Assembly (NCBI GenBank): GCA_965655095.1
Contig: OZ296649.1
Location: 94,860,001-94,924,000, forward strand
Length of the DNA: 64,000 nt
Direction: 5' to 3'
Origin: Haplodiscus bocki
Lineage: Eukaryota
The translations under genes and the position numbers were made by a program. Every line of letters begins with the position of its first letter. Position 1 is the stretch's first letter. The notes beneath the pieces were generated by a model. It was not told the origin of the DNA. It saw only the letters and a program-made list of their open reading frames with translations, and made no database searches. Below, one piece after another: positions 2,077 through 20,422 of the stretch.

Positions 2077-2985
2077 AATAATATACTATAATGCGGATTT
2101 ACCAGTAACTCGCCTGACGGCTCCTTACTAATAAATCCGTCATTATAGCCGTTCCCTACGCTTCGCTCCGGTCACTTATATTATTGCTCAGCTGTTTGAG
2201 CTTCGCCTTTTCGTCTCGCATAAAAGATGATATTAACGTAAAAATTTACAAAAACTGCTCTTGCTCAGTGTACCGTCCTAGCCATGGCCGCATCACTGGA
2301 GACAGTTCCCCCTCTATACCAAATTAATGGCAAGACAGTTCCTCCGGAGAATCACAGGTAGTGAATGACAAAGACTGGGGATACGTATTAAGTAGTGAAC
2401 CCCAAACACTACGGCCGCAAAGCCTTAACTTTTATCGATATCACTCACATACCATTCAACAAGCGGAGACAAAATAAAAGGAGACAAACTCGAATAAATA
2501 TACATCATTGGTATGTTATGACAACATCAACGATACTAGTGAATTTTTCACTTTCATATATGTCGACATCCTTAAACATGTACAGATTATAAAATTTTAA
2601 GCTACAAATACAGATGATATGTCGTTAGAAAGCCCGTCAAAAGTTAAGTATACCCTGAAAATATCAACATTGTATCTATTATAATCTTTGAGAAATTTGA
2701 CAAAAACAGTATATGTCGACATCCTTAAACATGTACAGATTATAAAATTTTAAGCTACATATACAAATGATATACCATTCAATAGGTCGTTAAAAGTTAT
2801 GTAAACCCTGAAAATTTCAATTTTGTATCTATTATAATCTTTGAGAAAATTGATAAAAACCCAAAATGACGTCATTTTTAAACATGTACAGATTATAAAA
2901 TTTTAAACTACATATACAAATGATATACCATTCGATAGCTCGTTAAAAGTTATGTATACACTGAAAATTTCAACTTTGTATCTAT
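2077..2985 (+). repeat. Left TIR, near-perfect part (degenerate homology continues to ~3352)
   Basis: Reverse complement of 19514-20422; 5 mismatches and no indels in 909 bp by manual comparison. Confidence 0.96.
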
Positions 2986-3170
2986 AATATTCTTCGAGAA
3001 AATTGACAAAAAAAGTATATGTCGACATATCTTAAACATATAGAGATTATAAAGTTTTAAGCTACTAATATAATTAAAATATTTTTGGATAGCTCGTGAA
3101 AATATTAGTGTATGTTGAAAATTTCAACCTCGTATCTATTTCCATTTTCGAGAAATTGACAAAATAGTAT
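2555..3170 (+). repeat. Four ~153-bp tandem repeats inside the left TIR (mirrored at ~19330-19945)
   Basis: AAACATG/A anchors at 2574, 2727, 2880, 3034; each unit has a palindrome (ATGTCGACAT or AAAATGACGTCATTTT). Confidence 0.9.
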
Positions 3171-3250
3171 TTGTAAAAGTATAAAAGAAAAATTATAAAC
3201 AAATATTCATACAAATATACATATAATTATACTATTATTTGTATAAGAAT

Positions 3251-3760
3251 TCATGTAAGTATACCTGGATTGTTATATAAAAACCATTGACGACAAGCAA
3301 ATTGAAATGGATTATTTATATCATTACAAAATGTTTGTATATAATCACGATTTTGAGCAAGGTTTTTAAAAAATTGACGATGTAGAGGAGATGCACCTAA
3401 TCTGAGATGATAATGTATATTTATATGAGATAGATTACTTAGAATTTTTATTTTAAAATTATTTATTTGATTAAATATATAACCATTTTCTCGAGCATTT
3501 TTAATTTTTTTATTTAAACCATAGAATTCAGTTTTAAACTCCATCGATCTATGAGTAACTGCAAAATTGACTTCTTCATTATTAGAAATATTTTTAAAGC
3601 AAAGATCATAAATAATTCTATATTCAAATGAATGAAAATACTTTTTTCTACAATCTTTAATAACATCATCGAGTATATAATCTATTTCATGAATATCTGT
3701 CTTATCAAATTCATATTCTTTAACAACAATTAACTGATTTTCGTTCGTCATATCGTTCAT
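3251..3760 (-). CDS. Polinton accessory protein, 169 aa, unknown function
   Basis: Intact ORF with TAAATG start; paralogous sequence at 18075-18452 and 19141-19242. Confidence 0.8.
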   Translation of the reverse strand: MNDMTNENQLIVVKEYEFDKTDIHEIDYILDDVIKDCRKKYFHSFEYRIIYDLCFKNISNNEEVNFAVTHRSMEFKTEFYGLNKKIKNARENGYIFNQINNFKIKILSNLSHINIHYHLRLGASPLHRQFFKNLAQNRDYIQTFCNDINNPFQFACRQWFLYNNPGILT

Positions 3761-3839
3761 TTATTATATATGATTTTGTTTAAATAAAAATCTTTCAATA
3801 AAAATTATATTAAAATTGAATTAGTTTTCATATATTTAA

Positions 3840-4298
3840 ATGGGGTATTGGAAATATTTAATGATGGAATCAGAATCTCCTAGATTTTGTTTGTCGACTG
3901 AAGATTATAGAGAAGAATGTGAAAAGCGTGATTTTTATAAAAATATAGGAAATATTCACGCTAACATAATCGAAGAAAAATTGATCCCAGATTGGTTTTA
4001 TTTAAATTTACCTTATTGTGACGAATGTAAAAAATATATAGAGTTTGTAGATGGTGTATGTTCTAATTATCAATCACATAGACTTTTAGTTACATGTAAT
4101 TATTGTCAAAAAGATTTTAGAACATTTAATGATAGACAAGTAAGATGTTCAGTTTGTTGTCAATCAATTGAATGTAAATTAAAAACATACACTTTTGAGA
4201 AATTAAAAAAATTAGCTAATGTATATAATATAAAAAGAAGAAAACAAGAGTTTATAATAGATGATTTAGTACAAAAAGTTGAAAATTATATCATTTGA
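3840..4298 (+). CDS. Cys-rich zinc-finger protein with a possible C-terminal SAP/helix-extension-helix-like domain, 152 aa
   Basis: CDEC, C..H, CNYC, CSVC motifs; C-terminal LKTYTFEKLKKLANVYNIK..KQEFIIDDL; TAAATG start. Confidence 0.7.
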   Translation: MGYWKYLMMESESPRFCLSTEDYREECEKRDFYKNIGNIHANIIEEKLIPDWFYLNLPYCDECKKYIEFVDGVCSNYQSHRLLVTCNYCQKDFRTFNDRQVRCSVCCQSIECKLKTYTFEKLKKLANVYNIKRRKQEFIIDDLVQKVENYII

Positions 4299-4672
4299 AT
4301 AGGTAAAATTATATTTTTCTGTACAAGTATATCAATTGTAACACATACAAGTATACGAGTAATTATACTTTGGTATATATACAATTATATGAGTAGTTGT
4401 ACATATATTTCTCATTTGTGTTACATACAATTATAAAATATGGATACATACTATTATACTTGTACATATACCTATGTATACTTACAATTATATGAGTAAT
4501 TAAACATTCATTAACATTATGAGATATGAATAATTATATGAGTATTTATACTTAGTTATACTTACAATTATACGAATAGATATTTGAGTATTCATACTAG
4601 GGTTATACTTACAATTATACGAGTAAGTATTATAATTATAATAACGGTTGGGTTTGAATAGGTGTATAGATA

Positions 4673-7600
4673 TTATATTTCATAATAAGGAAGCATATGA
4701 CCAAAATCATTTGGTTTTCTTCGTTTTAATTCATTTAAATTAGCTTCAAATTCTTTGTTTTCATTGATTTGATTATTACAAGTTGAACATAATATTCCAT
4801 CTTTACATGCATTACATTGTCTCATTTTTGTTGGAATTATAACTCCATTTTCGAATGATTTTTTCCAAGATCTCGGTAGTATAGCTGTTATTTTTTTACC
4901 TTTTAACATATTAAAATATTGAGATCGATCTAATAATCTTTTACTATCATTAAATCCTTTAAAGGTCATATGCTGTTCAATAACACCAAGTTCATTAATA
5001 GTTAGACAATATTTTATTTTAGGAGCTAAGAATAAACCGTAAAATATACCGCCTGTTTTATAATCATTTTTACGTTGACATAAATTTTTACCTACTAAAT
5101 TTGCTTTATCTAATACATCCCAATATTTTTTTTCTATATACAAGCTATCCGTGTCTCCATAGTATATACTATTATTATAAAATCCGTTTATTTCTCTAAT
5201 AAAATTGTTCATAATCCGTTTACTATTACTTAATATAAAAGCTCCTAAATGGCTTGGTAATGTATTTTTGACGTCGTTATCACCTTCTAATCCATCGTCC
5301 TTTTTTAATTTTACGATATAATTTCCGTTTGGTAATTTCCAATAATCTAAAACATTTTCATCGTATTCCGTTTCCATCCAACGTTGTGATTTACATTTAT
5401 AAGATTGATCAATGTCTTTGCGTATCTGAACTCCATACAAACTGTTCATGATTAATTTAACTAGTCTTTGCATTAAATCATTATGTTCGTCTTTATATTT
5501 TTGTCTTAAAGAAAATAATTGTTCTATAACTTTTCTAAATGGTGATATCTTAAAGTTTTCTCTATAAAGAACTCCCTCGTAAATTTCAATCACTTTTCCT
5601 CCTATTTTAACAATTTCACAAATATCAACACTAGTTAAAGTATCGATAATATAACCATTTCTCATTCTATTAACTTCAACATTTTTAACTTTTTCTTTAA
5701 CTGGGAGATGTTGATATATAAGATCAGGAGGATTATAATATTTTATTGTTAATATAGCAGATTCATCACCATCTTCGTTAAATGTTTGATTGTTGAATGC
5801 TTCTACATAAACATTATTCATATGTGGTTTAAAGGCAAATCCACTTTCTATTTTAGGATACACTGATTTTTCATCCCACATAGCACTTGGGTATAGACTT
5901 GTAGCATCAAAATCCATCATAACATCGTTAACATCTAGTTTTTGTAATTTTTTGTGTATTGGTAGTTTATTAAGTTCTTTGTTAATATGTTCGGTTCTTT
6001 CTTCCTCATCGTTATTTCGATAGTCTTTAAATTTCGAATCATATTCGTTTTCTATTATCTTTCTTTGTTTATTTGTATATTCAAAATATTTATCTATGAT
6101 TTCACAAACATTATCATTATCGTTAACATTTAATTCTTTTGAAATAATATTGAATGCTTCCTGTGAAATATTTGATTTATAATATTGATTTAAAGCTGAA
6201 CAACGACCTCCTTTTATACTTTTTCTAACAAAATGTCTCATAAATTCATCGTCATAAGTGTAGATTGGTTCATCGCTTTCATCTCTTAAACTATTAAAAT
6301 ATTTATTTGCAAGAGACGGCAAAGTCAAACAGTTTTTCATCCCAAATCCAGTTAATACTTCCATTCCTTTTGAATACCTAGCATAAGAGAAAGCTGTTGA
6401 TAACACATCGTTTTTAAGATAAGGTAACCACTCATTTTCTTTTTTTTCCCAAGTGTCTTCGAAAATTTCATCGTGTTCTAATTCTTGTTTAAGTAAACTT
6501 TCTTGTAATTTATAACATCTTCCTATATTTTTTAGGGAATCTTTAATATGTAATAATCCACATCTCAGATGAACATATTGAGGTATTTTTTTAACAGGGT
6601 CTACATAACCGTTGAATATTTTAAGAGATACAATACCTGATCCGTTTTTGATTAATTTAGAAGTTCTCCAATGAGGTAAATTGTTTAATACAACATAACT
6701 ATCGAATCCCGATCCTTTGTGTGCTATCAAGTATAAATTATATTTAACAATTTTGTTATTAATCCGTTTTGCTTCTCCTTTGAATTGTAAAACATAGTCT
6801 AACATTTTGTTAATATTATCTAATCCTTTCAAAACAATACAATCATTTAAACACTTTTGATATTCTTTCTCTGATATATCTCGATAATATTTACCTGAAA
6901 TTTTACTTAATCTATATATACAATTAGCATAAGGAACACATTTGATAGTACTAAAAGTTTCTATATCATAAACAACCACGTTAGTTAATTGAGATTGAAC
7001 TTTTTTAGGTTTGTATTCATATTTAATAAAACTTTTAACATGTTTATCAGATATGACATTATCAACGACTCTAAAGTTATCTTTTAATTCTTTTATTGCT
7101 TTTTCAAAGCTAACGTGATCTGATTTCCAAATTAAACAGAAGTGATTATTATGTCTTTTTAATGCTGTATTTCTTTGTGTAATATTTCTAGGACACACCC
7201 TAAAACCATCATAACAACCTATATTGATATTATGCTTTCTACAGAAAGGTTGAACTCTAGCAGATGTCATCACATTTGATCTTCTTTGTTCTGTTCGAAT
7301 AAAGGTTAAAAATTCTTCTGTATAATCTTTTTTAGTAAAATAATTGATACATTTGATAAAACAATTACCACTTGTAGGAATATAACAATTATTGCCTATA
7401 TATTCAACAATATCTTGTTTAAAATCTGTACCTCTACCATATTGAGATCTGTTTACTTTTTTGAATTCAGGTGTATTTAATTTATACAACCATCCTGTAA
7501 AAATAACATCTTCACTATCATAACCACTGTTATCTATAGCATTAATATAACTTTCGAAATCATCGACATTTTTAAACCTAATATTTGTTTTTTGTTCTAT

Positions 7601-8009
7601 CTCACCAACCAACATAGATCCAATTAATTCAAAATCACCTGTATAATCTTCTAAAATATCATTTTTAATTTCATGTAGATTTAACCCGTTAACATATTGT
7701 CTATCAGTTGTTGCTAGTTCAAAAAATCTACCTATGTTAATGTCTTCTACCACATTTTCTCTTTTCTGCCTTCTTTCATTTTGTTTTGTTTCCTTATTTG
7801 ATTCATTTTGTTTTCTAATCAACTTTCTTCTTTTATTTAACTCATATTCTTTTTTCTTTTGTAATTTCGTTGTCTTTTTTGTTTTTTGTAATTGTTGATT
7901 ATAATCGTCATAGTTTTCTTTAATTTTTCTAATTTCTTTTTTATTTTTTTTTTAGTTTATCCCTATATCGTTTTTCAGTTAATCGAGTTTTGTTCATTAC
8001 ACTGTCCAT
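4673..8009 (-). CDS. polB: Protein-primed family B DNA polymerase (putative terminal protein + vOTU-like + exonuclease + polymerase); +1 frameshift in T10 at 7944-7953; ~1111 aa repaired
   Basis: Exo YDIET, HKGSGFD, YLKNDV; Pol DFDATSLYPSAM, KLIMNSLYG, YGDTDSL; removing one base from the homopolymer extends the frame to a TAAATG start at 8009 (MDSVMNKTRL...). Confidence 0.93.
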
Positions 8010-8067
8010 TTATAAGGAATAAATTTATTCAAATGAAAATCCTTTCAATAAAAAACATAATAATTAA

Positions 8068-8460
8068 ATGGACACTAAAATATGTACTATTTGTACTATT
8101 GAAAAAGATATCAACAACTTTTACAAAAAATATACAGAATGTATAGACTGTAACCGTGCAAGAGGACTGAAACGATATTATGAAAATAAAGATAAAATAT
8201 CAAATCAACAAAAAGTATATTATGAAAAAAATAGAGAAAAAATATTATTACAGAAACAAAATAATAGAAGTATTCAATTTAGAGACTTAGTTATATCTTA
8301 TATTGAATTAGAAAACAGATTAAAAACATTAGAAGAAAAATTGAATGTTTACAAAAATATAAATGACTCAGAAAAACATCAAAATATTTATAAACGAAAT
8401 TTATTCCAAACCACCAAAAAAGAATTATATTACAAACAAAACAGATGTTTATCATATTGA
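8068..8460 (+). CDS. CxxC..CxxC zinc-ribbon/coiled-coil protein, 130 aa, overlapping the integrase start
   Basis: CTIC..CIDC; TAAATG start; N-terminus resembles that of the ATPase. Confidence 0.65.
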   Translation: MDTKICTICTIEKDINNFYKKYTECIDCNRARGLKRYYENKDKISNQQKVYYEKNREKILLQKQNNRSIQFRDLVISYIELENRLKTLEEKLNVYKNINDSEKHQNIYKRNLFQTTKKELYYKQNRCLSY

Positions 8461-9220
8461 TGACATTTGGTCTCTTGATATTTTAGACTTAAAAGATTAT
8501 GGTCCTGAAAATAATAGAGGTTACAGATATGTTTTAGTAACCATAGACAATTTCAGTAAATTTGGATGGACAGTTCCTTTAAAAAATAAAAAAGCTCAAA
8601 CATTAAAAGACTCTTTCGAAATAATTTTAATAACTTCAAAAAGAAAACCTGGTTTAATCGAAACAGATCGTGGAAAAGAATTTTATAACAATATTTTTCA
8701 AGATTTCTGAAACAAAAACAATATCAAACTTTATTCTAGAAATACTTATTTAGGTGTTGTTTTTGCTGAAAGATTTAATCGTAGTATCAGAGACCTTCTT
8801 AAAAAGATCGTTTTCGAACAAGGTGATGGTAATTGGATTGATATTTTACAAACAATAACAAAACAATATAATTATAGAATACATTCATCGACTAGGTTGA
8901 CACCAATACAAGCTAGTTTAAGGAAAAACGAAGGTTATGTTTACAAAAATTTATTAGACAAACGAAAGAAAATCAAACCAAAATATGAAATAGACGATTT
9001 AGTTAGAACGGCAGATTTAAAGAAAACGTTTTCGAAATCTGACACGACTAATTGGTCTTATAAATTGTATAAAATTACAGAAATTGTTAATGATACTATT
9101 CCAAGTTATAAAATCGACAATTTACCCGAAAGATATAACGAATCGTTACTGAAAAAGACTGATTTAACATTAAAAGAAAACAATACTGTCATGAAAAAAT
9201 TAAAAATTGATATTGTATAA
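8363..9220 (+). pseudogene. int: Retroviral-type (rve) DDE integrase, 285 codons, one in-frame TGA at 8708-8710
   Basis: WSLDILD, ETDRGKEF and, after the stop, FAERFNRSI; track ORFs 8363 and 8897 share one frame with open sequence between. Confidence 0.93.
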
Positions 9221-9287
9221 ATACACTTATTCAGATATGAATAGTATTATAATTATTAATATACTTGTATGAATACAATTATATCGC

Positions 9288-10541
9288 CTAACTTAAATCA
9301 AACATTCGTTGTCCATCGCTGGTTATACTTATTAATCTATTTGTCAAAACTAAAGCGTATCCATAAATTCCAGCATCAATGTTTTCTGAAAATTTAAATT
9401 CTACTTTGATGGGTTGAGCGTTTTCAAAATCTTTCTGATATCGTATATCGAAAGCGTATATATTATACCCTACATCATTATTATTATTAGACGATCTAAA
9501 ATCGTTTTCACTTATATATGGTTGGAGTAAATCATCTTTTGTTAAAGCTCTAAAAGTTTCTTTTATTTGACCATATCCTTGACTATAATCATCGTCATCA
9601 TAATTTAATAAAATACCAGAATCAGGATACCGTTCTGTTCCGATAACGACTTGAGCAGATATCACTGGAAGCCTGACAAAAGTGTCGTTGTTTAAATTTT
9701 GATCGTTTTGTCTATCATTTTGTTGGAATGCTACAAAAATATACATTGGAATATTAATACCTTCTTGTGTGCCCAGTTCAAAATTCCAAACATTTTGAGT
9801 ATTCACTTCTTTCATGAAAACTGATCTTTCTGGATATTGAATTTGAGTAGGTGTTTTGTTTAATATTTGTTTGGATAATATATTTTGTTGTTGCACGGAA
9901 GGAGTATAATGGGGTACGTACCATTCTAAAGCATTAATTTTAACTTTACCGTTGTTGATCGCATTACCTTTATTTAAAACAGCGTTGTCAGTATTTCTTG
10001 TTAATGTTAATTTATAACCGAGCCCATATGTACCTTTTTCTTGATATTCAGCAAAACCAAAAACATCTTTTAGATAAATTCTAATATGATATTTCCCTTT
10101 TATATTTTTGTTATTAGTTAATTCATTTCGTCTTCTAGTGCGATCACGATCAAAACCAATAGACAAATCATCAGATCCTTTACTCGATGATAATAACTTA
10201 TACATTAATGATACTATATGACCGTGATCAATATTTTCTAGATGTTTTCCCGAAGACGTTGTTAGCTTATAATTACTAAACAAAGCAATAGGTCCTAAAT
10301 TAACTAACCTTATATCGTTACCGTCTGCATATCTGTTATTGGGAGCAGCAGCATGTAATACATCAAAATTTAATTCAAGATAACTGTTTAACAATGAAAT
10401 AGCACTGTCCTCTCTAGGTATATTAATATATACTTGTGAATTGGCAGTATTTATTGTACTTATTTCAGACGGTGAGTATCGTATATAATCACATTTTAAA
10501 ATGTCTCTGTTAATTTCATATTTCCCACTTAGTTTAAACAT
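9288..10541 (-). CDS. Major capsid protein (double jelly-roll), 417 aa
   Basis: Size, beta-rich composition, Polinton-MCP-like motifs (SYLELNFDV, YLKDVFGFAE, LEWYVPHYTPS, PMYIFVAFQ, ERYP) and position in the structural block. Confidence 0.85.
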   Translation of the reverse strand: MFKLSGKYEINRDILKCDYIRYSPSEISTINTANSQVYINIPREDSAISLLNSYLELNFDVLHAAAPNNRYADGNDIRLVNLGPIALFSNYKLTTSSGKHLENIDHGHIVSLMYKLLSSSKGSDDLSIGFDRDRTRRRNELTNNKNIKGKYHIRIYLKDVFGFAEYQEKGTYGLGYKLTLTRNTDNAVLNKGNAINNGKVKINALEWYVPHYTPSVQQQNILSKQILNKTPTQIQYPERSVFMKEVNTQNVWNFELGTQEGINIPMYIFVAFQQNDRQNDQNLNNDTFVRLPVISAQVVIGTERYPDSGILLNYDDDDYSQGYGQIKETFRALTKDDLLQPYISENDFRSSNNNNDVGYNIYAFDIRYQKDFENAQPIKVEFKFSENIDAGIYGYALVLTNRLISITSDGQRMFDLS

Positions 10542-10610
10542 TTATATATCAAAAATGTATACATACAATTATAAGAATATTTTTATTCGAATATGAGTAA
10601 TTATACCTGT

Positions 10611-11459
10611 TTATTTGTTTAATAGATCACATTTAATTAAAATTTGTTTATGTTGTTTCTTAGATATGCATTTGTATTCTAATAATTTATCAATTATAAC
10701 AATTTCATCGTTAATTATATCAGAATTATTACCTGCATGTTTTTCTTGTAATAATAATTTTAATCTATCACATAATTCATCAGGATCAGATGATAAAAAT
10801 ATTGTATTCGAAACACCCAAAGCCGTGATAGCTGGTGAGTTAAGTAAAGTTATTAAAGTTCTGTCTCGAGTAGATTTGTTACCAACACGGCTTTTATCAA
10901 AATTCATTTCTTTTGCAAAATCAAACATTAATTTTTTATCTGATAAACTAGCAAGATCTACATTATAATTTTTATTAGTTATCATTTTTAAAAGTTCTCC
11001 TTTTAATTCGAATACTTTACCTGATTCACGAAATGTTAACAAATTATTATGTAAAGTAATTGGTATCGAGTTGTGTATTTTCAAATCATTAACTCTATTA
11101 GATGAAGGATCTTTTTCTAACTTAAATTGGGTTGTATTTTCAGGATTAGTAATTTTAGATAAAGGACTTATCAAATAACTAGCCAAAATTCCTCTATCAT
11201 TCATGATTTCTAAAAGTTTATTGTTTAAATTCTCTAGTGCAAGGTTATTGTCTTTAGAAGATTCTGTTATAGCTTTTGTTATATTTTCCGAAGTATTGTT
11301 AAGTGATTTAGTAACAGGTTCAAAGACCTTTTTTATGTCTTCGTGAAAATTTTGTTCACCTAATTTGTCTTGTAATTTAACAACTTTTACTTGATTTTGT
11401 AATAAAGCTAACTCTTCTAATTTTTCTATATCTTCTCTATCTTTTATTGAATATAACAT
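10611..11459 (-). CDS. Conserved Polinton protein of unknown function, 282 aa
   Basis: Intact ORF between ATPase and MCP; helical C-terminus DPDELCDRLKLLLQEKHAGNN recalled from Polinton hypothetical proteins. Confidence 0.7.
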   Translation of the reverse strand: MLYSIKDREDIEKLEELALLQNQVKVVKLQDKLGEQNFHEDIKKVFEPVTKSLNNTSENITKAITESSKDNNLALENLNNKLLEIMNDRGILASYLISPLSKITNPENTTQFKLEKDPSSNRVNDLKIHNSIPITLHNNLLTFRESGKVFELKGELLKMITNKNYNVDLASLSDKKLMFDFAKEMNFDKSRVGNKSTRDRTLITLLNSPAITALGVSNTIFLSSDPDELCDRLKLLLQEKHAGNNSDIINDEIVIIDKLLEYKCISKKQHKQILIKCDLLNK

Positions 11460-11468
11460 TTGAAAGAT

Positions 11469-12221
11469 TTAAAAAGGTTTCGTCTGAGGTATTGCTTCTA
11501 AATATGTGTTTTTACTTTCATTACAAATGCAATATTTTCCTTGATCTCTCTTTTTAGATCTATCAATATAAAGATAATTATAATCATCCTCCCACGATTT
11601 TCTACATAAATCTTTAAATTCGTCGTAATTCATATCATATCCTGCGACATCTCTATATATATGTTCAATATCTTTTAACGTTTGATTAAACAAAATTATT
11701 TTGTTACTATTATTTCTTATTGTTCTTTTTGGTAAATCAAAATAAGATTGTGATAAATAATAAATATCTAGATTATTGTGTCGTCCTCTAATGAAAAATT
11801 GATCTATAAATCTACTATTTGTTGAACCTAAAACATCGTCAAAAACTATAATACCATTTTCATATTCGTTTAGAGGTTTTATTTCATCGCTTATTTCTCT
11901 AATTTTGATTTTAGAATTGGTATATTGTTCTGGGGGTGATTTAGTGATTATATAAATATCTCTATCTGATATACGCGAAAGAATTTTTAACATCAAATAT
12001 GTTTTACCCGAAAAAGATGGACGGACTAATAATGTTCGATTATTATTTTCAAATTTTGATTGTTTGTTAATGTTTTCGATAATTTTATTTGGAGGTAAGG
12101 TGTTAATATTGATTTTTCTTTTCTTTTTATTGTAACATTCCCTACAAATCGTTCTATCTTTCTTGTAATTATTTATATCTAATTTTATGTTACATGCAGA
12201 ACAATTTTTATTCTTATCCAT
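11469..12221 (-). CDS. A32/FtsK-like genome-packaging ATPase with N-terminal zinc ribbon, 250 aa
   Basis: Walker A RPSFSGKT (first Gly replaced by Arg), Walker B IIVFDD, RGRH and SQSYF motifs. Confidence 0.92.
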   Translation of the reverse strand: MDKNKNCSACNIKLDINNYKKDRTICRECYNKKKRKININTLPPNKIIENINKQSKFENNNRTLLVRPSFSGKTYLMLKILSRISDRDIYIITKSPPEQYTNSKIKIREISDEIKPLNEYENGIIVFDDVLGSTNSRFIDQFFIRGRHNNLDIYYLSQSYFDLPKRTIRNNSNKIILFNQTLKDIEHIYRDVAGYDMNYDEFKDLCRKSWEDDYNYLYIDRSKKRDQGKYCICNESKNTYLEAIPQTKPF

Positions 12222-12360
12222 TTAAAATACAAAACAGTTCATATTCTCATTTCATTTACATTGGATAGAACAGTTCAACAGAACAGACTTTTTTAAGTTC
12301 TAGGCTGAAAGTTTAATTTATTATGACTAAAAAAATTTAATTTTATTTTTATATTCATGT

Positions 12361-12893
12361 TTATAAAAAAGATTCATTTTTGTATTCATCAACATATCTA
12401 GTAAAAATATTACAAAGATTTTCATATTCGGTTTTATCGATAATATTATCTTGTAATGATTTTCTGTATAATTTATCAAAAGATTTAATAGTATTTTGAT
12501 CTCTTTCATATTGTTTTTTGTATTTATTGTATTTGTTTATAATTAATTTGTGTAATATTTTGTTACCTAATGATAGACCACAAGCAATACCAGCTGATAT
12601 AGGCAAAACAATTAAACCAATACCAGTAACCGATAGAGTTATCGATGTTGACGTTGCTCCGATAATAACGATGCTGTCTATAGATTCTAATATTGTGTTT
12701 AGAGTTTTATAATTTTTGTTTTTCTTTTTTGATTTGTTGTTTTTATCTTTGAAATAGGTTATCATTTCTTTGATGTTACTGATATGGTTATTGAAACTGT
12801 TAACATCATTTATTTTTTTTCTAGTCTTTTTTCTAAATCAATATTTTCTAATAACGGTGCTGATGGGTATAATTTATCTGTCTTTACTTCCAT
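12361..12893 (-). pseudogene. Putative membrane protein (~177 aa repaired) with LYPSAPL motif and hydrophobic hairpin; -1 frameshift in T8 at 12813-12820
   Basis: TAAATG start at 12893 gives MEVKTDKLYPSAPLLENIDLEKRLEKK; adding one A joins it to track ORF 12361-12765 (IVIIGATSTSITLSVTGIGLIVLPISAGIACGLSL). Confidence 0.75.
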
Positions 12894-12931
12894 TTATATA
12901 ACATAAAATGCAAAAATACTCTTATATGAGT

Positions 12932-13346
12932 TTAAGTAAATCTAGGTAAGTATAAACCTTTACCGGTGTGATAAAACGTTATCAACTCTGGCAATGTTGA
13001 TAGAGCTTGTTTCGAATTTCGAGAAGCAGCTGCTGTTGCTATTTTTGTTGTCAAATCTAGGGCTCTTCCAGGGTTGCTTAAAACGTTTTTTGCCATCTTT
13101 TTTGATGCATTAAGTCCTTTTTTACCTAGATTTTTGAAGAAATCGCCGAGACCTTCTGCTTGAATAACATTATCAGAAACAATCATTGTTTTTTTTTCTA
13201 TTACAAATCACACATTTTCCGACTAGTAATTTAACATCTTTACCAGTTTTTTTATTGATAGTCATCTCTCCAACTATGTTTTTTGTAGCAGATCGATGTC
13301 TACCTCCAACACAATATGAATCACTTTTAAATTTTTGAAAGCTCAT
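12932..13346 (-). pseudogene. Small basic virion-like protein (~137 aa repaired), Cys/His N-terminus plus amphipathic helix; +1 frameshift in T9 at 13189-13197
   Basis: TAAATG start at 13346: MSFQKFKSDSYCVGGRH...GKCVICNRKK then TMIVSDNVIQAEGLGDFFKNLGKKGL. Confidence 0.72.
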
Positions 13347-13387
13347 TTAAAATACAAATAAATATAAAAGTATGTAAACATGTTTGT

Positions 13388-14506
13388 TCAGATTTTAATC
13401 ATTTGTAATGTAAATGTCAACGTTTCGCCGTTAAAATCAACTTCTTTGTTATTATCATCTTCTAAATAAAATGTTATTGTATTCAAAACAGATTTATTTA
13501 TTTTTTTATAATGAATTGTTTCAGGTTCGCAAAAAACTTTATAACCACTTGGTTTGTCTCATACAAAACTAAACAGAATAGGCTGTCTTATCCCATCTTG
13601 AATACTACCATCGATAGCGTCGCATTTCAAATGAATTTTATCTATTGTATTTATATTTAAAATAAACTTATCGCTAGGGTAAACACCTGGAATAAGAACA
13701 TGATTAGAATTGTTTGGTTTATAATCCCAATATGGTGAAAACCCTAATAAAGTATGAAAAAAAGATTGCTTATCAAATCTCAATGTTCCTAAAGCAAACT
13801 TCTTTTTTCCATCCTTGAATTTTAAAACAATTGTCACTCTCTTGGTAATATCATCATATACTAATTCTATAGTCACTTCATGTCCACTGAAAGTTTCAAT
13901 AGCGTCAGAAATATCTTGTATTGTGTAAATTCCAGGAGTTAATTGGTAAGTGATAAAATGTGAATTATATTCTTTTAAAATTAACTGAATATCTTGTTCA
14001 TCTAATCCAATAACAAGCCTCAAATAACTCTCAAAATCTCGAAATGATGATGCGCAATAACCAAATAATAACATTATATAACCATCACTATCTCTCTTTT
14101 CATTTGATAGTCTAATATATTCATCAATAATACGAGGTCCTAATATTTCATCATTGAGATGATCATCCGTAATGTGTGAGATATTAAGAATTTCTTCGAG
14201 CTCATCTTTTAATTCTAAAAATCCAAACTTATCATCTTCACCTCTGTAAATATCGAATTTGTTATTTTCTTCTGTTATGTTAAAAATAGAATTATATACT
14301 TCTAGATTAACTAATCCCAACATCCAATCTCCTTTAACCTGAATTGGTGGTTTGAAATGAAATATTTCTCTTGGTTTAGTCATTTTGAATTCCAATGTTT
14401 CTTCTGGTTTTCTATGAGTCTGTTCAATAAGTGTTTCACAATTTTTAGTAATGGATAATAATAAATCTTCTGTTTCATTTTTAGGATGAATCATATTTAA
14501 GTTCAT
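13388..14506 (-). pseudogene. Minor capsid (penton-like) paralog B, 372 codons, in-frame TGA at 13559-13561
   Basis: After the stop the frame continues DKPSGYKVFCEPETIHYKKINKSVLNTITFYLEDDNNKEVDFNGETLTFTLQMIKI*, colinear with the C-terminus of paralog A. Confidence 0.82.
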
Positions 14507-14603
14507 TTAAAATTTAAAAAAATACTCCTATACAAGTATGAGAATTATACTCATATATGTGTAATTATATTTTGTATACATACATGTATAAGAGTATAAT
14601 TTT

Positions 14604-15668
14604 TTATATTTTTATTAATTGACATGTAAAAGATATCGTTTCACCATGAAAATCAACAGGTTTGTAATCATCGTCTTCAAAATAAAATGTTATGTGAGAT
14701 AGAACAGATTTATTCACTTTTTTGAAAAGTTTGACTCTAGGTTCTTTATATATTTTATGCCCAGGTGAAGACAAAGCAAAACTGTACAAAATAGGTTCTC
14801 GTATACCGTTAACGATAGATCCATGTATACAATCACATTTTAAATGAATTTTGTCAATTCCTGTAATGTTAATTGGTTTATCGCTTTTATACGATCCTGC
14901 TATCAATTGATAATGACTATCTATATCATCTAACGGATAAGATCGTGATTGTGTAAAACCTAAAATTGTATAAAAGAAAGATATTTCAGTAAATATTAGA
15001 GTTTGATTAATTTTTAAATTTGATTTTAATCCAATATCATCTATTGTAATGTTTACTTCTACATTATCAGGTAGAATATGTTTTAAATTATTATTTAAAT
15101 CGTTAACTTCATAAATACCCGGATTCAAACTATATCCGGTTCTTTTTGTAGGAATATATTTCAAGTCTAATATGTTCATAATTTCATCATAAGATAGTCG
15201 CATTCTATGAACTAAATCTTCAAGATCATTGTATTTAACATTTTTTAATTCTTGAAGTATCTCATATTTTTGATTATCAAAGTCTGATAATTTATATTCT
15301 TTGTCTGCTATTTTTATTTTATTTCCTCTTTTTTTAACTTCTACATGTAATCCAAGAGATTTAAGCTCTAATAATTTATTTAGATCGTTAATAGTTTTCT
15401 CATCGGTTTTATTTTGGTAATGACCTGGTATGATGATTGAAAACGAGTTATTATCATCAGTTACATTAAAAACAGAATTAGTACACTCAAGAGAAGACAC
15501 GGCAATTAACCATCTACCTTCTTCAACCAAATTTATTGGTGGATTAAACGAAAATGTTTGCATTTGTTTATTCATTTTGAATTCGAGTGTTTCTTGTGGT
15601 TTTGTCCTTGTTTGTTCAATCAAAGTATCAGTGTGTTTTTTAATTAAAAGTAATAGTTCATTATTCAT
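14604..15668 (-). CDS. Minor capsid (penton-like, single jelly-roll) paralog A, 354 aa
   Basis: NSVFNVTDDNNSF, PGIYE, IHLKCDCIHGSIVNG..PILYSF, ITFYFEDD..VDFHGE motifs typical of Polinton minor capsid proteins. Confidence 0.8.
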   Translation of the reverse strand: MNNELLLLIKKHTDTLIEQTRTKPQETLEFKMNKQMQTFSFNPPINLVEEGRWLIAVSSLECTNSVFNVTDDNNSFSIIIPGHYQNKTDEKTINDLNKLLELKSLGLHVEVKKRGNKIKIADKEYKLSDFDNQKYEILQELKNVKYNDLEDLVHRMRLSYDEIMNILDLKYIPTKRTGYSLNPGIYEVNDLNNNLKHILPDNVEVNITIDDIGLKSNLKINQTLIFTEISFFYTILGFTQSRSYPLDDIDSHYQLIAGSYKSDKPINITGIDKIHLKCDCIHGSIVNGIREPILYSFALSSPGHKIYKEPRVKLFKKVNKSVLSHITFYFEDDDYKPVDFHGETISFTCQLIKI

Positions 15669-15723
15669 TTATAATATTTATAATTACACTTATTCAAATA
15701 AAATTATTATACTTGTACAAATA

Positions 15724-15930
15724 CTATTTTGTAAGTATACCAAATCCACTAGCTGTAAAATCTTTAACAAATTTTTTATTTTTTTTTGAAAATTTTTTGT
15801 TTTGTTTACCTCCTCCTAAAATAGGTTGAGTTTTTTTATTTTTTGTCGTGGTTTGTTTAATATCTTTTGTTTGTTCACTTTTTGGGATATATCTAACACT
15901 ATTATCAACAGTTATTTTTCTCAATACCAT
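15724..15930 (-). CDS. Small Lys-rich protein, 68 aa, candidate core protein
   Basis: TAAATG start; very basic; ILGG/G matches the adenain cleavage consensus. Confidence 0.6.
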   Translation of the reverse strand: MVLRKITVDNSVRYIPKSEQTKDIKQTTTKNKKTQPILGGGKQNKKFSKKNKKFVKDFTASGFGILTK

Positions 15931-15953
15931 TTATAATATTCAAATACAAAGTT

Positions 15954-16367
15954 TTAAGAAAATCTTTGATAATACAAATTCAAAACAGAAGATTTAAAAT
16001 CAAAACCTAATATTTTTGTCAAGTAAATTATATATAAACAATAACTAGCGCAATAACTATCATTTTTTTGTATTTGATATTCTGAATATAAACAAAATCC
16101 ATTTCGTTTTATAATAAATTTAGATAATTTCTTTGGACAAACACAACCATATGAATCAAAATAGCTTTCGTTTATGTAGCAAACCCAATGAGTGCCTGTT
16201 GATGGGTGTAGATTAACAATACCAATATCAGATTTAAAAGGTCCGTCTCTTAAATAGATTTCAATATCATTCAAAGATAAGAATGAAAGGACTTGTTGAA
16301 TTTTTAGATTTGATGTTGCTTTATTTTTTAATTTATATTTTTCAATAAACTCATTAAACGTCATCAT
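15954..16367 (-). CDS. Adenain-like cysteine protease, 137 aa
   Basis: GTHWVCY (His), YFDSYG (Asp), QIQ..SYCASYC (Gln/Cys). Confidence 0.93.
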   Translation of the reverse strand: MMTFNEFIEKYKLKNKATSNLKIQQVLSFLSLNDIEIYLRDGPFKSDIGIVNLHPSTGTHWVCYINESYFDSYGCVCPKKLSKFIIKRNGFCLYSEYQIQKNDSYCASYCLYIIYLTKILGFDFKSSVLNLYYQRFS

Positions 16368-16418
16368 TTAAACACTCATATAATTGTATGTGATTATGTA
16401 TTTTCTGATAAATCAGGT

Positions 16419-16826
16419 CTACGCCTTGTTGTAAATAAAAAAATCTTTCAGTACTTCTTCAGCATTTTGAAAATTATCAAATAATCCCCTATCATATAAT
16501 ATTTGTATTGTTGTTTTCACAGCTCTTTGAATTAAAATTTCTTCTACATTTTGTTTGTCGTATTGTGATTTAAATTCGTTGAAATCTTTTTCTAATTTTG
16601 ATAAGTGACCATCTATTTTCAATAATTTTGAATCTAGATAAGCTTTGTTTATTACATCTTCGTTATCAACAGGTTCAAAATTTGTTGTTAATTTTTCATC
16701 CTTTTTATAAGTATCATGTACTTCAAGTTTTAATTGACTAATATTAACATCTTGTAATTTATCTCTTTTAGAAACGATACCATCGAATTCACTTTCCCAT
16801 AATTTATTATAAGATATATAAGCCAT
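16419..16826 (-). CDS. Hypothetical Polinton protein, 135 aa (coiled coil)
   Basis: Intact ORF, TAAATG start; C-terminus may be shifted at the A7 run 16437-16443. Confidence 0.7.
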   Translation of the reverse strand: MAYISYNKLWESEFDGIVSKRDKLQDVNISQLKLEVHDTYKKDEKLTTNFEPVDNEDVINKAYLDSKLLKIDGHLSKLEKDFNEFKSQYDKQNVEEILIQRAVKTTIQILYDRGLFDNFQNAEEVLKDFFIYNKA

Positions 16827-16847
16827 TTAATATATGAATATATTTAA

Positions 16848-17186
16848 TTATATTTTTTTGTTCATTTGTTTTTTCATCCTAGTCATAATTAAATTAGCTC
16901 TTTTTTCATCATCAATATCTTTTAATAGCTTTGCCTTTGATTCTTCTAACCATTTTTCATCGTAATCACCTATTTTGTTTTTTAAAGTATCATTTTCTGC
17001 AGATAGATCAACTATATCATCACCTAATAAATTAAAAGCTTTTTTAATAGCTGGCATCATGCTGACTAACTGCTCGCCTTTCTTTGCTTGAGTTGTTAAA
17101 GATTGTTGGTTAAATTCTTTGAGATCTTGAATGGTATCATTTCTTACTGTTTTATCATTAGAGCTCAATTGCATGACTAATTCCAT
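16848..17186 (-). CDS. Hypothetical coiled-coil protein, 112 aa
   Basis: Intact ORF, TAAATG start, co-oriented in the gene block. Confidence 0.7.
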   Translation of the reverse strand: MELVMQLSSNDKTVRNDTIQDLKEFNQQSLTTQAKKGEQLVSMMPAIKKAFNLLGDDIVDLSAENDTLKNKIGDYDEKWLEESKAKLLKDIDDEKRANLIMTRMKKQMNKKI

Positions 17187-17256
17187 TTATATACACATAA
17201 TTACAACATACTCATATAAAAGTATGTATACTAAATATAATTACATGTATAAGAGT

Positions 17257-17691
17257 TCAAATTTTATTATTCTTGAGAATTTTGTCTAAATAGTGTTCAT
17301 TAATTTCAATATTCTCTTGTACAGCACCACCTTTCAATTTGTTCTTTTTATTTTTAACTGTTTCGTTTAAAGTCGTCTTGAGGTCATTTGAGGTCATTTG
17401 AGGTCTTTTGAGGTCACCGATATCATCGATTTTAGCCTTTTTTGGTCGTTTTTTGGTGTTATTTGGGTTAATTCGGTATGGTGAAAGCATATTTATATCG
17501 TTTCGATATCTTTTTATAGTAGAAGAGGACATGTTTAATTGAGATGATATCTCTGATTGTGTCATTTTTGGATTCTGATATTTGATATTCATGAAATCAT
17601 TCATAAGTTTCAATTTATAATATTTAGTTAACATATTAGGATCCATTGCAGAATTTTTATTTATTTCGTTTAAAGAAGGAGTATTATTCAT
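17257..17691 (-). CDS. Helix-turn-helix DNA-binding protein, 144 aa
   Basis: MTQSEISSQLNMSSSTIKRYRNDI HTH pattern; NLS-like KKRPKK; LKGG/A site. Confidence 0.75.
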   Translation of the reverse strand: MNNTPSLNEINKNSAMDPNMLTKYYKLKLMNDFMNIKYQNPKMTQSEISSQLNMSSSTIKRYRNDINMLSPYRINPNNTKKRPKKAKIDDIGDLKRPQMTSNDLKTTLNETVKNKKNKLKGGAVQENIEINEHYLDKILKNNKI

Positions 17692-17902
17692 TTATATATA
17701 TCGTTATTGTTATTTTATTCTTATACAAGTACGTATATAAATACAAACATCATACTCTTATAAATGTAATTATATTTAGTATACATACTTGTATACGAGT
17801 ACAATTCTTATAAAAACACAATAATCACATCATTCTCGTATACAAGTATGTATACTAAATATAATTACATTTATATGAGTACATTTTTTATATGAGTACA
17901 AT

Positions 17903-18085
17903 TCATATATGAGTACAATTTTTTATATGAGTATAATTTTTAATATTGTATAATAAAACAAAAAATAAAAACACAAACATAATTATAACGATTAAAATTA
18001 TAAATATTTTAAAGTATTTGTTTTGTTTCTTTGTGTTATCAACAAAAATAATGTATTCTTCAAGTAAATTCGTTTTAATATTCAT
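17903..18085 (-). CDS. Small single-pass membrane protein, 60 aa
   Basis: TAAATG start; 20-residue hydrophobic stretch IFIILIVIIMFVFLFFVLLY preceded by basic residues. Confidence 0.5.
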   Translation of the reverse strand: MNIKTNLLEEYIIFVDNTKKQNKYFKIFIILIVIIMFVFLFFVLLYNIKNYTHIKNCTHI

Positions 18086-18452
18086 TTATATAAATCATCT
18101 TTTTATTTTTAATTCTTTGTCTCGCATCGTTTTTTAACATTTGAATAGCTAACATAGACTTTATTGGGTGCGAAATAAAAGCTAATTTAATTTCATTAAG
18201 TTGATTGTATTTAAGCACCGGTCTTTTTTTAATAATTTCGTTTATAATATGTTTCAAATCTTGTTCGTTATTGGGTTTTATATCTGTTGTAATGATTTGA
18301 TTGTCTTGTGTTATAAATTCTACTGTTACAATGCTTAAATATTTATTCGGGGTAAATTTTTCTTCTTTACAAGTGTTATGCATATGATCTATAAAGTCAT
18401 CGTATTCGTCTAAACCAACATTTTCAAAGTTGTATTCGTTAGAAAGCATCAT
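18075..18452 (-). CDS. Accessory protein, 125 aa, distant paralog of 3251-3760
   Basis: EYNFENVGLDEYDDFIDHMHNTCKEEKF vs EYEFDKTDIHEIDYILDDVIKDCRKKYF; YNQLNEIKLAFIS vs FNQINNFKIKILS. Confidence 0.65.
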   Translation of the reverse strand: MMLSNEYNFENVGLDEYDDFIDHMHNTCKEEKFTPNKYLSIVTVEFITQDNQIITTDIKPNNEQDLKHIINEIIKKRPVLKYNQLNEIKLAFISHPIKSMLAIQMLKNDARQRIKNKKMIYINEY

Positions 18453-18598
18453 TTATAACATTTTTTCTTGTAATTTAAAACAATTATGATATTATCGTAC
18501 ATATAATAATTTCTCAAAATCGTGATTATATACAAACTCATTGTAATGATCATAGAAATACTTTATCGTTTTTGATTTCAATAATTTTTTTAATATAA

Positions 18599-19141
18599 AT
18601 GACGGTTATATATATCGCTGAAAATAATTGTTATTGCTATGCAGTGACTTTTGAAAATAAAGGATGGGTTAAAGTTCAAAAATTTGAAGATGAGACTCTT
18701 GATGAAAATATTATTTACACAGTCAATCCTATGAAATCATTTTTGGGTAAAAGTCAACGTTGTAGTATGACAGCTTTGTCAGGAGCTTTTGATAAGGGCT
18801 GTTTCGATGGGAATACTATTTTACTTAAAGTAGGTATAGAAATTGGAAAAAATAAATATGTATATATTGGTGGTGATATGGTATGTTCTTTTATGACTAG
18901 TGATAATATATATGAATATATCTCGAATATGGGAAATAATTTGAGCCCTTATAGTATTGCTACTGGTGAGAAAAATTACTATTTGTTGGCTCCGAATTTT
19001 AGTTTTATTAAAAAGGATAAGATTGATTACAATACTATATTGAATGGAATTTACGTTCCTGAATCAGATTTGCCTTTTGAAAAAATTGAATTGTTTAAAA
19101 TTCATTCGAATTATGATAAAGATGACGATGATGACAACTAA
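18599..19141 (+). CDS. Accessory protein, 180 aa, resembling a hypothetical family of large DNA viruses
   Basis: Intact ORF, TAAATG start; FDGNTILL..YVYIG..YISNMGNNLSPYSIA.GEKNYY pattern (family resemblance is from memory). Confidence 0.7.
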   Translation: MTVIYIAENNCYCYAVTFENKGWVKVQKFEDETLDENIIYTVNPMKSFLGKSQRCSMTALSGAFDKGCFDGNTILLKVGIEIGKNKYVYIGGDMVCSFMTSDNIYEYISNMGNNLSPYSIATGEKNYYLLAPNFSFIKKDKIDYNTILNGIYVPESDLPFEKIELFKIHSNYDKDDDDDN

Positions 19142-19242
19142 ATCGTGATTATATCGAAACTCATTGTAATGATCATAGAAATACTTTTCATTTTGCTTGT
19201 CTCCAATGGTATTCATATAATAATCCAGGTATACTCACATGA
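19141..19242 (+). pseudogene. 3' relic of a paralog of the 169-aa gene
   Basis: Translates NRDYIETHCNDHRNTFHFACLQWYSYNNPGILT* vs NRDYIQTFCNDINNPFQFACRQWFLYNNPGILT* at 3251-3352. Confidence 0.85.
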
Positions 19243-19513
19243 ATACATATAAAAATACTAGTATAATTATTTTTATATTTGTATGAATACTTTTTTGTAA
19301 AAATATAATTGTTTATATACTTGTACAAATACTATTTTGTCGATTTCTCGAAAATGGTAACAGATACGAGGTTGATATTTTCAGCGCACACTAATATTTC
19401 AACGAGCTATCCAAAAAAATATCACACTTTGTTGTAGCTCAAAATTTTATAATCTGTACATGTTTAACGTATGTCGACATTTTGGGTTTTTGGCAATTTT
19501 CTCGAAGATTATA

Positions 19514-20422
19514 ATAGATACAAAGTTGAAATTTTCAGTGTATACATAACTTTTAACGAGCTATCGAATGGTATATCATTTGTATATGTAGTTTAAAATT
19601 TTATAATCTGTACATGTTTAAAAATGACGTCATTTTGGGTTTTTATCAATTTTCTCAAAGATTATAATAGATACAAAATTGAAATTTTCAGGGTTTACAT
19701 AACTTTTAACGACCTATTGAATGGTATATCATTTGTATATGTAGCTTAAAATTTTCTAATCTGTACATGTTTAAGGATGTCGACATATACTGTTCTTGTC
19801 AAATTTCTCAAAGATTATAATAGATACAATGTTGATATTTTCAGGGTATACTTAACTTTTGACGGGCTTTCTAACGACATATCATCTGTATTTGTAGCTT
19901 AAAATTTTATAATCTGTACATGTTTAAGGATGTCGACATATATGAAAGTGAAAAATTCACCAGTATCGTTGATGTTGTCATAACATACCAATGATGTATA
20001 TTTATTCGAGTTTGTCTCCTTTTATTTTGTCTCCGCTTGTTGAATGGTATGTGAGTGATATCGATAAAAGTTAAGGCTTTGCGGCCGTAGTGTTTGGGGT
20101 TCACTACTTAATACGTATCCCCAGTCTTTGTCATTCACTACCTGTGATTCTCCGGAGGAACTGTCTTGCCATTAATTTGGTATAGAGGGGGAACTGTCTC
20201 CAGTGATGCGGCCATGGCTAGGACGGTACACTGAGCAAGAGCAGTTTTTGTAAATTTTTACGTTAATATCATCTTTTATGCGAGACGAAAAGGCGAAGCT
20301 CAAAGAGCTGAGCAATAATATAAGTGACCGGAGCGAAGCGTAGGGAACGGCTATAATGACGGATTTATTAGTAAGGAGCCGTCAGGCGAGTTACTGGTAA
20401 ATCCGCAATATAGTATATTATT
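19514..20422 (-). repeat. Right TIR, near-perfect part (degenerate homology continues to ~19141)
   Basis: Reverse complement of 2077-2985; identical 65-aa spurious ORF on both sides. Confidence 0.96.

Follow-up and report, generated by a model that had tools for sequence, protein, structure and literature searches.

Particles of the Polintons of animals are reported not to have been observed (PMC8097293, PMC7805220). How these elements leave their cells is a question on which light may be shed by a gene in the window analysed here, a stretch of 64,000 nucleotides from Haplodiscus bocki, which would encode a predicted membrane protein carrying a late motif, LYPSAPL, in which a P(S/T)AP and a YPx3L signal overlap. 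The reading favored here, to which a probability of about 0.4 is assigned, is that the protein serves as an exit adaptor, releasing capsids in membrane via the ESCRT machinery.

The element that carries the gene is 18.3 kb long, has a low GC content, and is bounded by terminal inverted repeats of 1,110 nt (arms 96% identical) and by an identical 6-mer at both flanks. Matches to PF03175 (pPolB), PF00665 (rve), PF21738 (capsid), and PF04665 (ATPase) all exceed the Pfam cut-offs, and with its inverted repeats, target duplication, and these four marker genes, the element is a Polinton/Maverick (Polintoviricetes). Pfam returned no match for the ORFs at 15954-16367, 13559-14506, and 14604-15668, and the cysteine protease and penton are assigned by eye. 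The latter two ORFs are related and in tandem on the minus strand (315 and 354 aa, penton-like by eye), with common N- and C-terminal blocks and 72% identity over 121 nt. The inverted repeats continue at 83% into 3193-3353/19140-19300, both arms containing 153-nt tandem units; for the left-end ORF (3251-3760 and 18075-18550), an inverted 41-nt relative lies near 18510-18550, and AT-rich palindromic intergenic repeats are located at 14529-14604, 17190-17265, 17734-17941, and 4350-4578. Outside the Polinton, the window contains a diverged duplication (36627-38040 / 49232-50581, 12.5 kb apart, 74-79%) and, at 56604-61115, an array of ~176-nt units.

Table 1. Features of the Polinton and of the late-motif gene (positions in the window).
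Feature	Position	Strand	Basis or remark
Polinton/Maverick, complete-looking	2077..20422		TIRs, 6-bp target duplication, pPolB, rve integrase, capsid, ATPase
Double-jelly-roll major capsid protein	9288..10541	-	Pfam PF21738, E 2.1e-11
A32-type packaging ATPase, downstream neighbor of the late-motif gene	11469..12221	-	Pfam PF04665, E 8.6e-7
Gene for 177-aa late-motif, hydrophobic-hairpin (SLATT-like) protein, broken here	12361..12893	-	Frame analysis and genomic copies
Basic flank, second long helix, short C-terminal helix with conserved DNxIDxxEY	12361..12561	-	Models and alignment
38-residue uncharged hairpin with central xGxG	12562..12675	-	Gly/Ser/Ala/Thr-rich; second half hydrophobic enough for a membrane span
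Lys-rich basic patch inside first long predicted helix	12706..12750	-	Sequence and model
Homopolymer run, frame-break site of the window copy	12813..12820	-	7/42 loci share the stop at codon 27
LYPSAPL, P(S/T)AP overlapped with YPx3L	12852..12872	-	Read from the frame of ATG 12893
TAAATG spanning the start codon	12891..12896	-	40/42 genomic copies
Upstream neighbor gene, broken in the window copy	12932..13346	-	Cys/His N-part, xGxG, amphipathic helix, C-terminal GKGLYL

The late-motif gene is located on the minus strand between the genes for the A32 packaging ATPase and an amphipathic peptide. In the window copy, the ATG at 12893 opens a frame containing K-LYPSAPL-L that stops after 27 codons (12810-12812), and the body of the protein is read in a different frame, ending at the stop at 12361-12363. 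An earlier, sequence-only reading had proposed, after frameshift repair, an N-terminal K-LYPSAPL-L followed by a coiled coil, a basic patch, and a Gly/Ser/Ala-rich hairpin, adding that the ORF track misses the motif; each of these points was confirmed at the level of sequence (Table 1), the stop-to-stop ORF list giving the 158-aa body only. P[ST]AP occurs a single time across the six frames of the 18.3-kb Polinton, and no PPxY is present in the late-motif gene as a second motif.

That the upstream segment is joined to the body in intact copies had been set beforehand as a test, and the genome of 1.5 Gb provides the answer. From a search with the motif-less body, in which the best 150 of 16,462 candidates were scored, 30 loci were fetched, and 12 came from another search; of the resulting 42, 33 are open from the motif ATG to 177-186 aa, seven (the window copy included) end at 27 aa, and two end at 58 and 121 aa. 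LYP[ST]AP is present in 40 of the 42, the remaining two carrying LYPTAQ and LYPTPP, and although the body query lacked the motif, 28 of its 30 loci contain it. A nucleotide pattern coding LYP-(S/T class)-AP, which also allows Cys, Arg, Trp, and stop at the variable position, matched the genome 4,177 times versus 205 for the reversed control, and a pattern for a core hexapeptide matched 3,088 times versus 28, so that the gene is present in thousands of copies, with the motif kept at least as often as the core peptide. Among the matches listed, a Ser/Thr codon occupies the variable position in 97 of 100 by hand count. The stop at codon 27 is identical in copies with differing N-termini (the window copy and loci L002, L003, L008, L025, L028, and L029), as would be expected if the same homopolymer run had slipped repeatedly, through mutation or assembly error.

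Conservation of the motif, which the sequence-only reading had left to be established, is evident from the 30 intact copies compared. The pN/pS ratio is 0.12 for the motif versus 0.43 for residues 1-7, with values of 0.11, 0.17, and 0.22 for three parts of the body; the copies are related by descent, and these pairwise rates are not independent counts. Despite the use of 2, 2, 3, and 3 codons, respectively, L8, Y9, P10, and P13 are invariant, A12 and L14 are each kept in 29 of 30 copies, and position 11 is always Ser (20 copies, with both TCN and AGY codons) or Thr (10 copies), as in P(S/T)AP. Among 112 database homologs of 177 residues, retrieved with a query that contained the motif, conservation averages 98.7% over the six fixed positions of the motif, compared with 73% for residues 2-7 and 94% for residues 15-177, and position 11 is Ser in 92, Thr in 18, and Asn in 2. 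These substitution patterns show purifying selection on the motif. Within the window lineage, however, conservation is not confined to it, residues 15-21 being conserved as strongly.

The body of the protein is arranged in the order coiled coil, basic patch, 38-residue uncharged hairpin, and coiled coil. Two AlphaFold models (built with 13 and 50 sequences; mean pLDDT 74, pTM 0.56-0.58) both place a first helix between residues 14 and ~72 and a second one ending at 149, separated by three short strands (75-98, low to moderate confidence) and followed by a short terminal helix, the N-tail being unstructured (pLDDT 47-61). The uncharged stretch comprises 38 residues in 13/13 aligned proteins, half of them Gly/Ala/Ser/Thr; its first half is Ser/Thr-rich, its best Kyte-Doolittle 19-mer scores 1.9-2.3, and the net charge within 30 residues on either side is +3 to +6. 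From the basic flanks and a start unlike a cleavable signal, it is predicted that the hairpin resides in the membrane with the N-tail in the cytosol, although the models give strands (pLDDT ~50-70) rather than two membrane helices. The stretch might fold as a hairpin, cross the membrane once and re-enter it in part, or form a tongue with delayed insertion; in each case, insertion from the cytosol would leave the N-tail on the cytosolic side. The DNxIDxxEY motif (residues ~149-157, in the region 12361-12450 of the window) is conserved across lineages and resembles half an EF-hand loop.

This architecture could also belong to a SLATT-like pore or viroporin, in which the hairpin oligomerizes and permeabilizes membranes, leading to lysis, ion leak, or the killing of a helper-virus-infected cell, and the motif engages ESCRT for sorting, shedding, or turnover of the pore protein or to keep ESCRT from repairing membranes. 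The NCBIfam family SLATT_1 is the most frequent weak match (19/50 members at E<=0.01, best 1.7e-4), accompanied by weak matches to Chlamydia Inc proteins and to one xenorhabdolysin subunit, and in having a helical hairpin tipped by a hydrophobic, strand-rich segment the protein is reminiscent of ClyA-type proteins. In polinton-like viruses (PLVs), SLATT proteins have been termed putative pore formers (PMC12220804). However, every family score lies under its curated cut-off (NF033634, 17.9 of 41 bits with 23 as the best in the genome; PF18181, 17.1 of 26.3; NF033632, 14.1 of 55), so the protein is best described as SLATT-like but below family level on sequence scores. PDB sequence searches gave nothing better than E 0.13, and none of the fold searches produced a hit at E<=0.001. 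The PDB fold rows are generic coiled coils, including prefoldin and ESCRT-III cores (best Z 9.1 and 8.7); ClyA-type proteins match weakly in Foldseek (E 0.5-1.2), AhlC (Z 7.3, rmsd 2.3, 105 aligned) ranks among unrelated coiled coils, and MakA, ClyA, and AhlC match at background level only. The top viral fold rows, three uncharacterized invertebrate-iridovirus proteins (E 0.014-0.15, TM 0.26-0.42), serve as a lead only, and PADLOC returned scattered weak rows. Moreover, a pore has no need of a selected late motif. The pore reading is considered unlikely, but it can coexist with an exit adaptor, since bluetongue NS3 itself is reported to show viroporin-like activity.

The strongest argument for ESCRT binding comes from the diversity of the family. 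Protein searches yielded 1,353 representatives at E<=0.001, and a profile built from distant matches yielded 1,035 proteins. Frameshifted or truncated relatives make up most of a set of 150 representatives, of which five entered the motif counts. The motif survey covered 247 sequences (120 close homologs, 120 from the distant profile, and 7 cluster members), four of which have short tails and were left out, giving five lineages at 35-52% core identity with 120 (the window lineage), 104, 11, 4, and 4 sequences. In this order, [LI]YP is found in 118/120, 89/104, 11/11, 4/4, and 4/4; [LI]YPx[LIV] in 0/120, 79/104, 11/11, 4/4, and 4/4, that is, in 98 of 123 full-tail sequences over the four other lineages; and P[ST]AP in 118/120, 37/104, 0/11, 0/4, and 0/4, the last three together giving 0/19. 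Overlapped YP[ST]AP characterizes the window lineage (117/120, versus 4/104 in the second), in which LYPx3[LI] occurs in 114/120, and in 19/104 of the second lineage LYPxL is followed by a separate P[ST]AP downstream. Shuffling the N-tails (20,000 times each) produced P[ST]AP in <=0.14% and [LI]YPx[LIV] in <=0.37% of cases. The conservation of LYPxAP across Polinton homologs, which the sequence-only reading had put forward as a check, thus holds for [LI]YP in five of five lineages but for P[ST]AP in two of five, with the overlap largely confined to the window lineage. LYPSAPL fits the loose forms of both signals, as had been claimed, but the longer ALIX-binding pattern, with a second Leu/Ile three residues after the first, is absent from all five lineages (0/120 in the window lineage).

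The motif also floats with respect to the body, the distance from Tyr to the first core Phe varying from 19 to 42 residues, and in a 50-sequence alignment Y9 and P10 are the sole columns before residue 21 at or above 90%. A midpoint-rooted tree of 32 selected sequences, in which long branches were flagged, has LYPSAP in two clades that are set apart by clades with YPxL; it is not read as giving an order of events. On these motif counts, a putative ALIX-type element is family-wide, a putative TSG101-type element is present in two of five lineages, and their overlap is a local arrangement. Late domains are functionally exchangeable (PMC8402826), and a floating motif that swaps between two ESCRT-type forms, sometimes carrying both, is pattern evidence of late-domain behavior. 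Names for ALIX-ligand motifs are available as ELM classes (PMC8728146). The large second lineage has no member in this genome (best match 44%), and one of the four other lineages shows a Polinton context, by eye, in a fusion record. Two longer gene forms, both fusions, were found and look like deletion products. Beyond these proteins, IMG/VR scans with four queries and one metagenome scan revealed no relative, a single IMG/VR locus at E 2e-4 being rejected as chance (no matching ORF, on an unrelated phage-like contig), and GenBank phages gave no match to the protein. In the Atlas, the one nearest cluster (0.91 and 0.94) is 58% viral, has Preplasmiviricota as the commonest phylum among the 12 with a record, and shows no common Pfam family.

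The same diversity bears on the possibility that the motif is not an ESCRT signal, the LYP instead packing on the helical bundle or binding a clathrin adaptor (YxxL) or another reader of proline-rich motifs. The Yxx-bulky pattern is a sorting signal, and the YPSL, YPNL, and YPVL of four lineages fit it as well; in the window lineage, moreover, the motif is no better conserved than the neighboring residues 15-21. There is a precedent in BK polyomavirus, where the conserved YPX3L of VP1 turned out to have a structural role and not that of a late domain (PMC11281352). Nevertheless, the YPSA of the window lineage does not fit Yxx-bulky, the spacing to the core is variable, and a position restricted to Ser or Thr, together with a separate downstream P[ST]AP elsewhere, is what two ESCRT motifs predict. 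This explanation is considered unlikely, slightly more so than the pore, and the N-tail motif probably binds the ESCRT adaptors ALIX and/or TSG101.

An ATPase motif lies within 1.5 kb of the late-motif gene in 31 of 42 genomic loci, and the upstream amphipathic-helix gene does so in 41 of 42. The latter is 132-139 aa long counted from the first Met in five of six copies shown; by description alone it fits the Cupiennin/pX-like virion-core proteins, and it may represent a virion-core entry peptide. In adenovirus, protein VI employs a PPxY motif during entry, and the late-motif protein could similarly be carried in the virion, breach the endosome, and use its motif on the way in, with the protease of the element possibly cutting the central xGxG to free the hydrophobic end. 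The gene sits in the virion block, xGxG is kept in four of five lineages, similar motifs occur in the upstream neighbor, and PLV SLATT proteins have been proposed for endosomal escape (PMC12220804). On the other hand, the fifth lineage has LAGLA in place of xGxG (4/4), the glycines would equally suit a hairpin turn, the C-terminal GxGLYL of the upstream neighbor is lacking, and that co-traveling neighbor is the better entry candidate, which leaves an entry role for the late-motif protein improbable, somewhat more so than either preceding account.

TAAATG, presumably a poxvirus-late-type initiator, is found at the start of 17 of 18 ORFs checked versus a background of 34 in 689 ATGs in the Polinton, suggesting a cytoplasmic, helper-dependent cycle; since nearly all of these ORFs share it, it does not mark the late-motif gene as late or structural. 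An action on a poxvirus-type helper that transcribes the Polinton, with ESCRT brought to its wrapping membranes or drawn away from them to hitch a ride or cut its yield, would agree with these starts, with PLVs in entomopoxvirus occlusion bodies (PMC11296320), and with an iridovirus that buds via ALIX, TSG101, and Nedd4 (PMC4880917), but it is very unlikely, as this host has no known helper, the poxvirus label of the promoter is presumptive, and nothing ties the protein to helper membranes.

The host possesses the putative partners. A TSG101 UEV domain was detected in the genome at 115.6 bits and ALIX V-domain exons at up to 64.8 bits. The UEV exon (E 2.5e-28 against the human domain) keeps residues matching Y68, N69, M95, and V141, with Phe replacing Y63, and the ALIX exon (E 1.2e-11 against the human protein) is followed by an exon opening with Phe matching F676, numbering being inferred from the chains; these residues are assumed to line the binding pockets. 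The presence of adaptor genes removes an objection without favoring the reading further, because every eukaryote with ESCRT would pass. A second UEV-domain copy in the host, at L045 (G000:C1:62185447-62188737; 67 bits), is broken by an internal stop and a frame change.

In the proposed exit mechanism, the hairpin would act as the membrane anchor and the basic patch would steer the protein, while the N-tail LYP[ST]APL recruits host ALIX and/or TSG101. Residues shared by the two signals would be occupied by TSG101 and ALIX in turn rather than simultaneously. The coiled coils might oligomerize or grip the capsid, and ESCRT-III would then sever the bud, either at the plasma membrane or on its way into multivesicular bodies, so that new capsids would leave the cell wrapped in membrane, with bluetongue NS3 as the working model. 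The motif, its joining in intact copies, its selection, the lineage pattern, the gene position, and the host adaptor genes are observed, whereas adaptor recruitment, the part played by the coiled coils, and the release of the bud are deduced. Against an exit adaptor, only the gene position links the protein to the capsid, three of five lineages as surveyed lack P[ST]AP and all of them the longer ALIX pattern, the hairpin is modeled as strands with a Ser/Thr-rich first half, and ESCRT serves several processes besides egress. If the adaptors are bound, exit is judged to be the purpose with odds slightly better than even.

A broader proposal, that animal-type Polintons are quasi-enveloped and bud from living cells by means of an NS3-like exit protein with a SLATT-like hairpin and interchangeable ALIX/TSG101 signals, is doubtful at present, although it would explain both the spread of thousands of copies and the fact that naked Polinton virions have not been seen. 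A selected late motif offers a short and cheap experimental handle, and particles would have to be sought in the vesicle fraction rather than as naked capsids. The exit reading, if true, would also assign to SLATT-like Polinton genes a function other than the proposed entry pore. That late motifs exist and that non-enveloped viruses exploit ESCRT is already established, and the kind of mechanism is not new. In the openly accessible literature covered by the search, no paper linking Polintons to ESCRT was found, the two joint mentions being general reviews; among the best 30 of 48 matches, no paper with 'polinton' also contained 'late domain' or 'ESCRT', and the strings LYPSAP and YPSAP were absent among the best 20 of 2,775 matches. 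In the passages covered of the individual papers, ESCRT and budding are mentioned neither in 10.64898/2026.06.19.733378 nor in PMC11071296, ESCRT, budding, and egress are absent from PMC12220804, 'envelope' does not appear in the main text of PMC8502044, and 'membrane' and 'envelope' are both missing from PMC11161782.

Several known systems resemble the Polinton protein in part. Nematode Mavericks with MFUS-1 have been proposed to form enveloped particles (10.1101/2022.07.12.499685, the text of which mentions neither ESCRT nor budding), but they encode a gB-like fusogen, and none is seen among the ORFs of this Polinton. Toxoplasma GRA14 is inserted in a membrane and recruits ALIX and TSG101 through LYPxL and PTAP in a cytosolic tail, yet it is not viral and serves the uptake of host cytosol (PMC13532356), indicating that such a pair need not mean virion exit.

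SLATT-labeled genes, marked on some adintovirus maps (PMC8502044, Starrett et al.) and widespread in cryptophyte PLVs (PMC12220804), share with the Polinton protein a helix, two hydrophobic segments, and a helix, along with the weak SLATT_1 matches. The Polinton protein falls below the curated cut-offs, however, and the likeness is one of layout rather than of compared gene sequences. The pore proposed for PLV SLATT proteins concerns endosomal escape, that is, entry and not exit, with no late motif mentioned in the passages covered (PMC12220804), and the membrane-active adintovirus proteins described by Starrett et al. are PLA2X, GasderminX, and Cupiennin (PMC8502044).

Classic late domains follow the P(T/S)AP and YPX(1-3)L patterns as defined in PMC4880917, and known cases include HIV p6, EIAV p9, Ebola VP40, hepatitis A VP2, and tiger frog iridovirus proteins. 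Motif overlap is already known from Ebola VP40, as is quasi-envelopment from hepatitis A (PMC8402826). In VP40, however, PTAP overlaps with PPxY, not YPx3L with P(S/T)AP, and the classic motifs are carried by capsid or matrix proteins instead of a separate predicted membrane protein.

The closest counterpart is bluetongue NS3, a membrane protein of a non-enveloped orbivirus that employs N-terminal late motifs (PSAP-TSG101) for non-lytic exit and presents, in the same order, late motifs, a coiled coil, polybasic motifs, two membrane segments, and a capsid-binding tail (PMC7409164, PMC6949946). The two differ in that bluetongue is a dsRNA virus and the Polinton an integrating dsDNA element, in the second motif (PPRY, binding NEDD4, in NS3 versus LYPx(n)L here), and in the loop between the membrane segments (21 residues and glycosylated in NS3 versus a tight xGxG turn here). 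No NS3 family appeared in Pfam scans of the protein, and NS3 is, by this comparison, an analogue and not a relative; if the exit reading is true, the Polinton protein would add a DNA-virus case of the NS3 solution.
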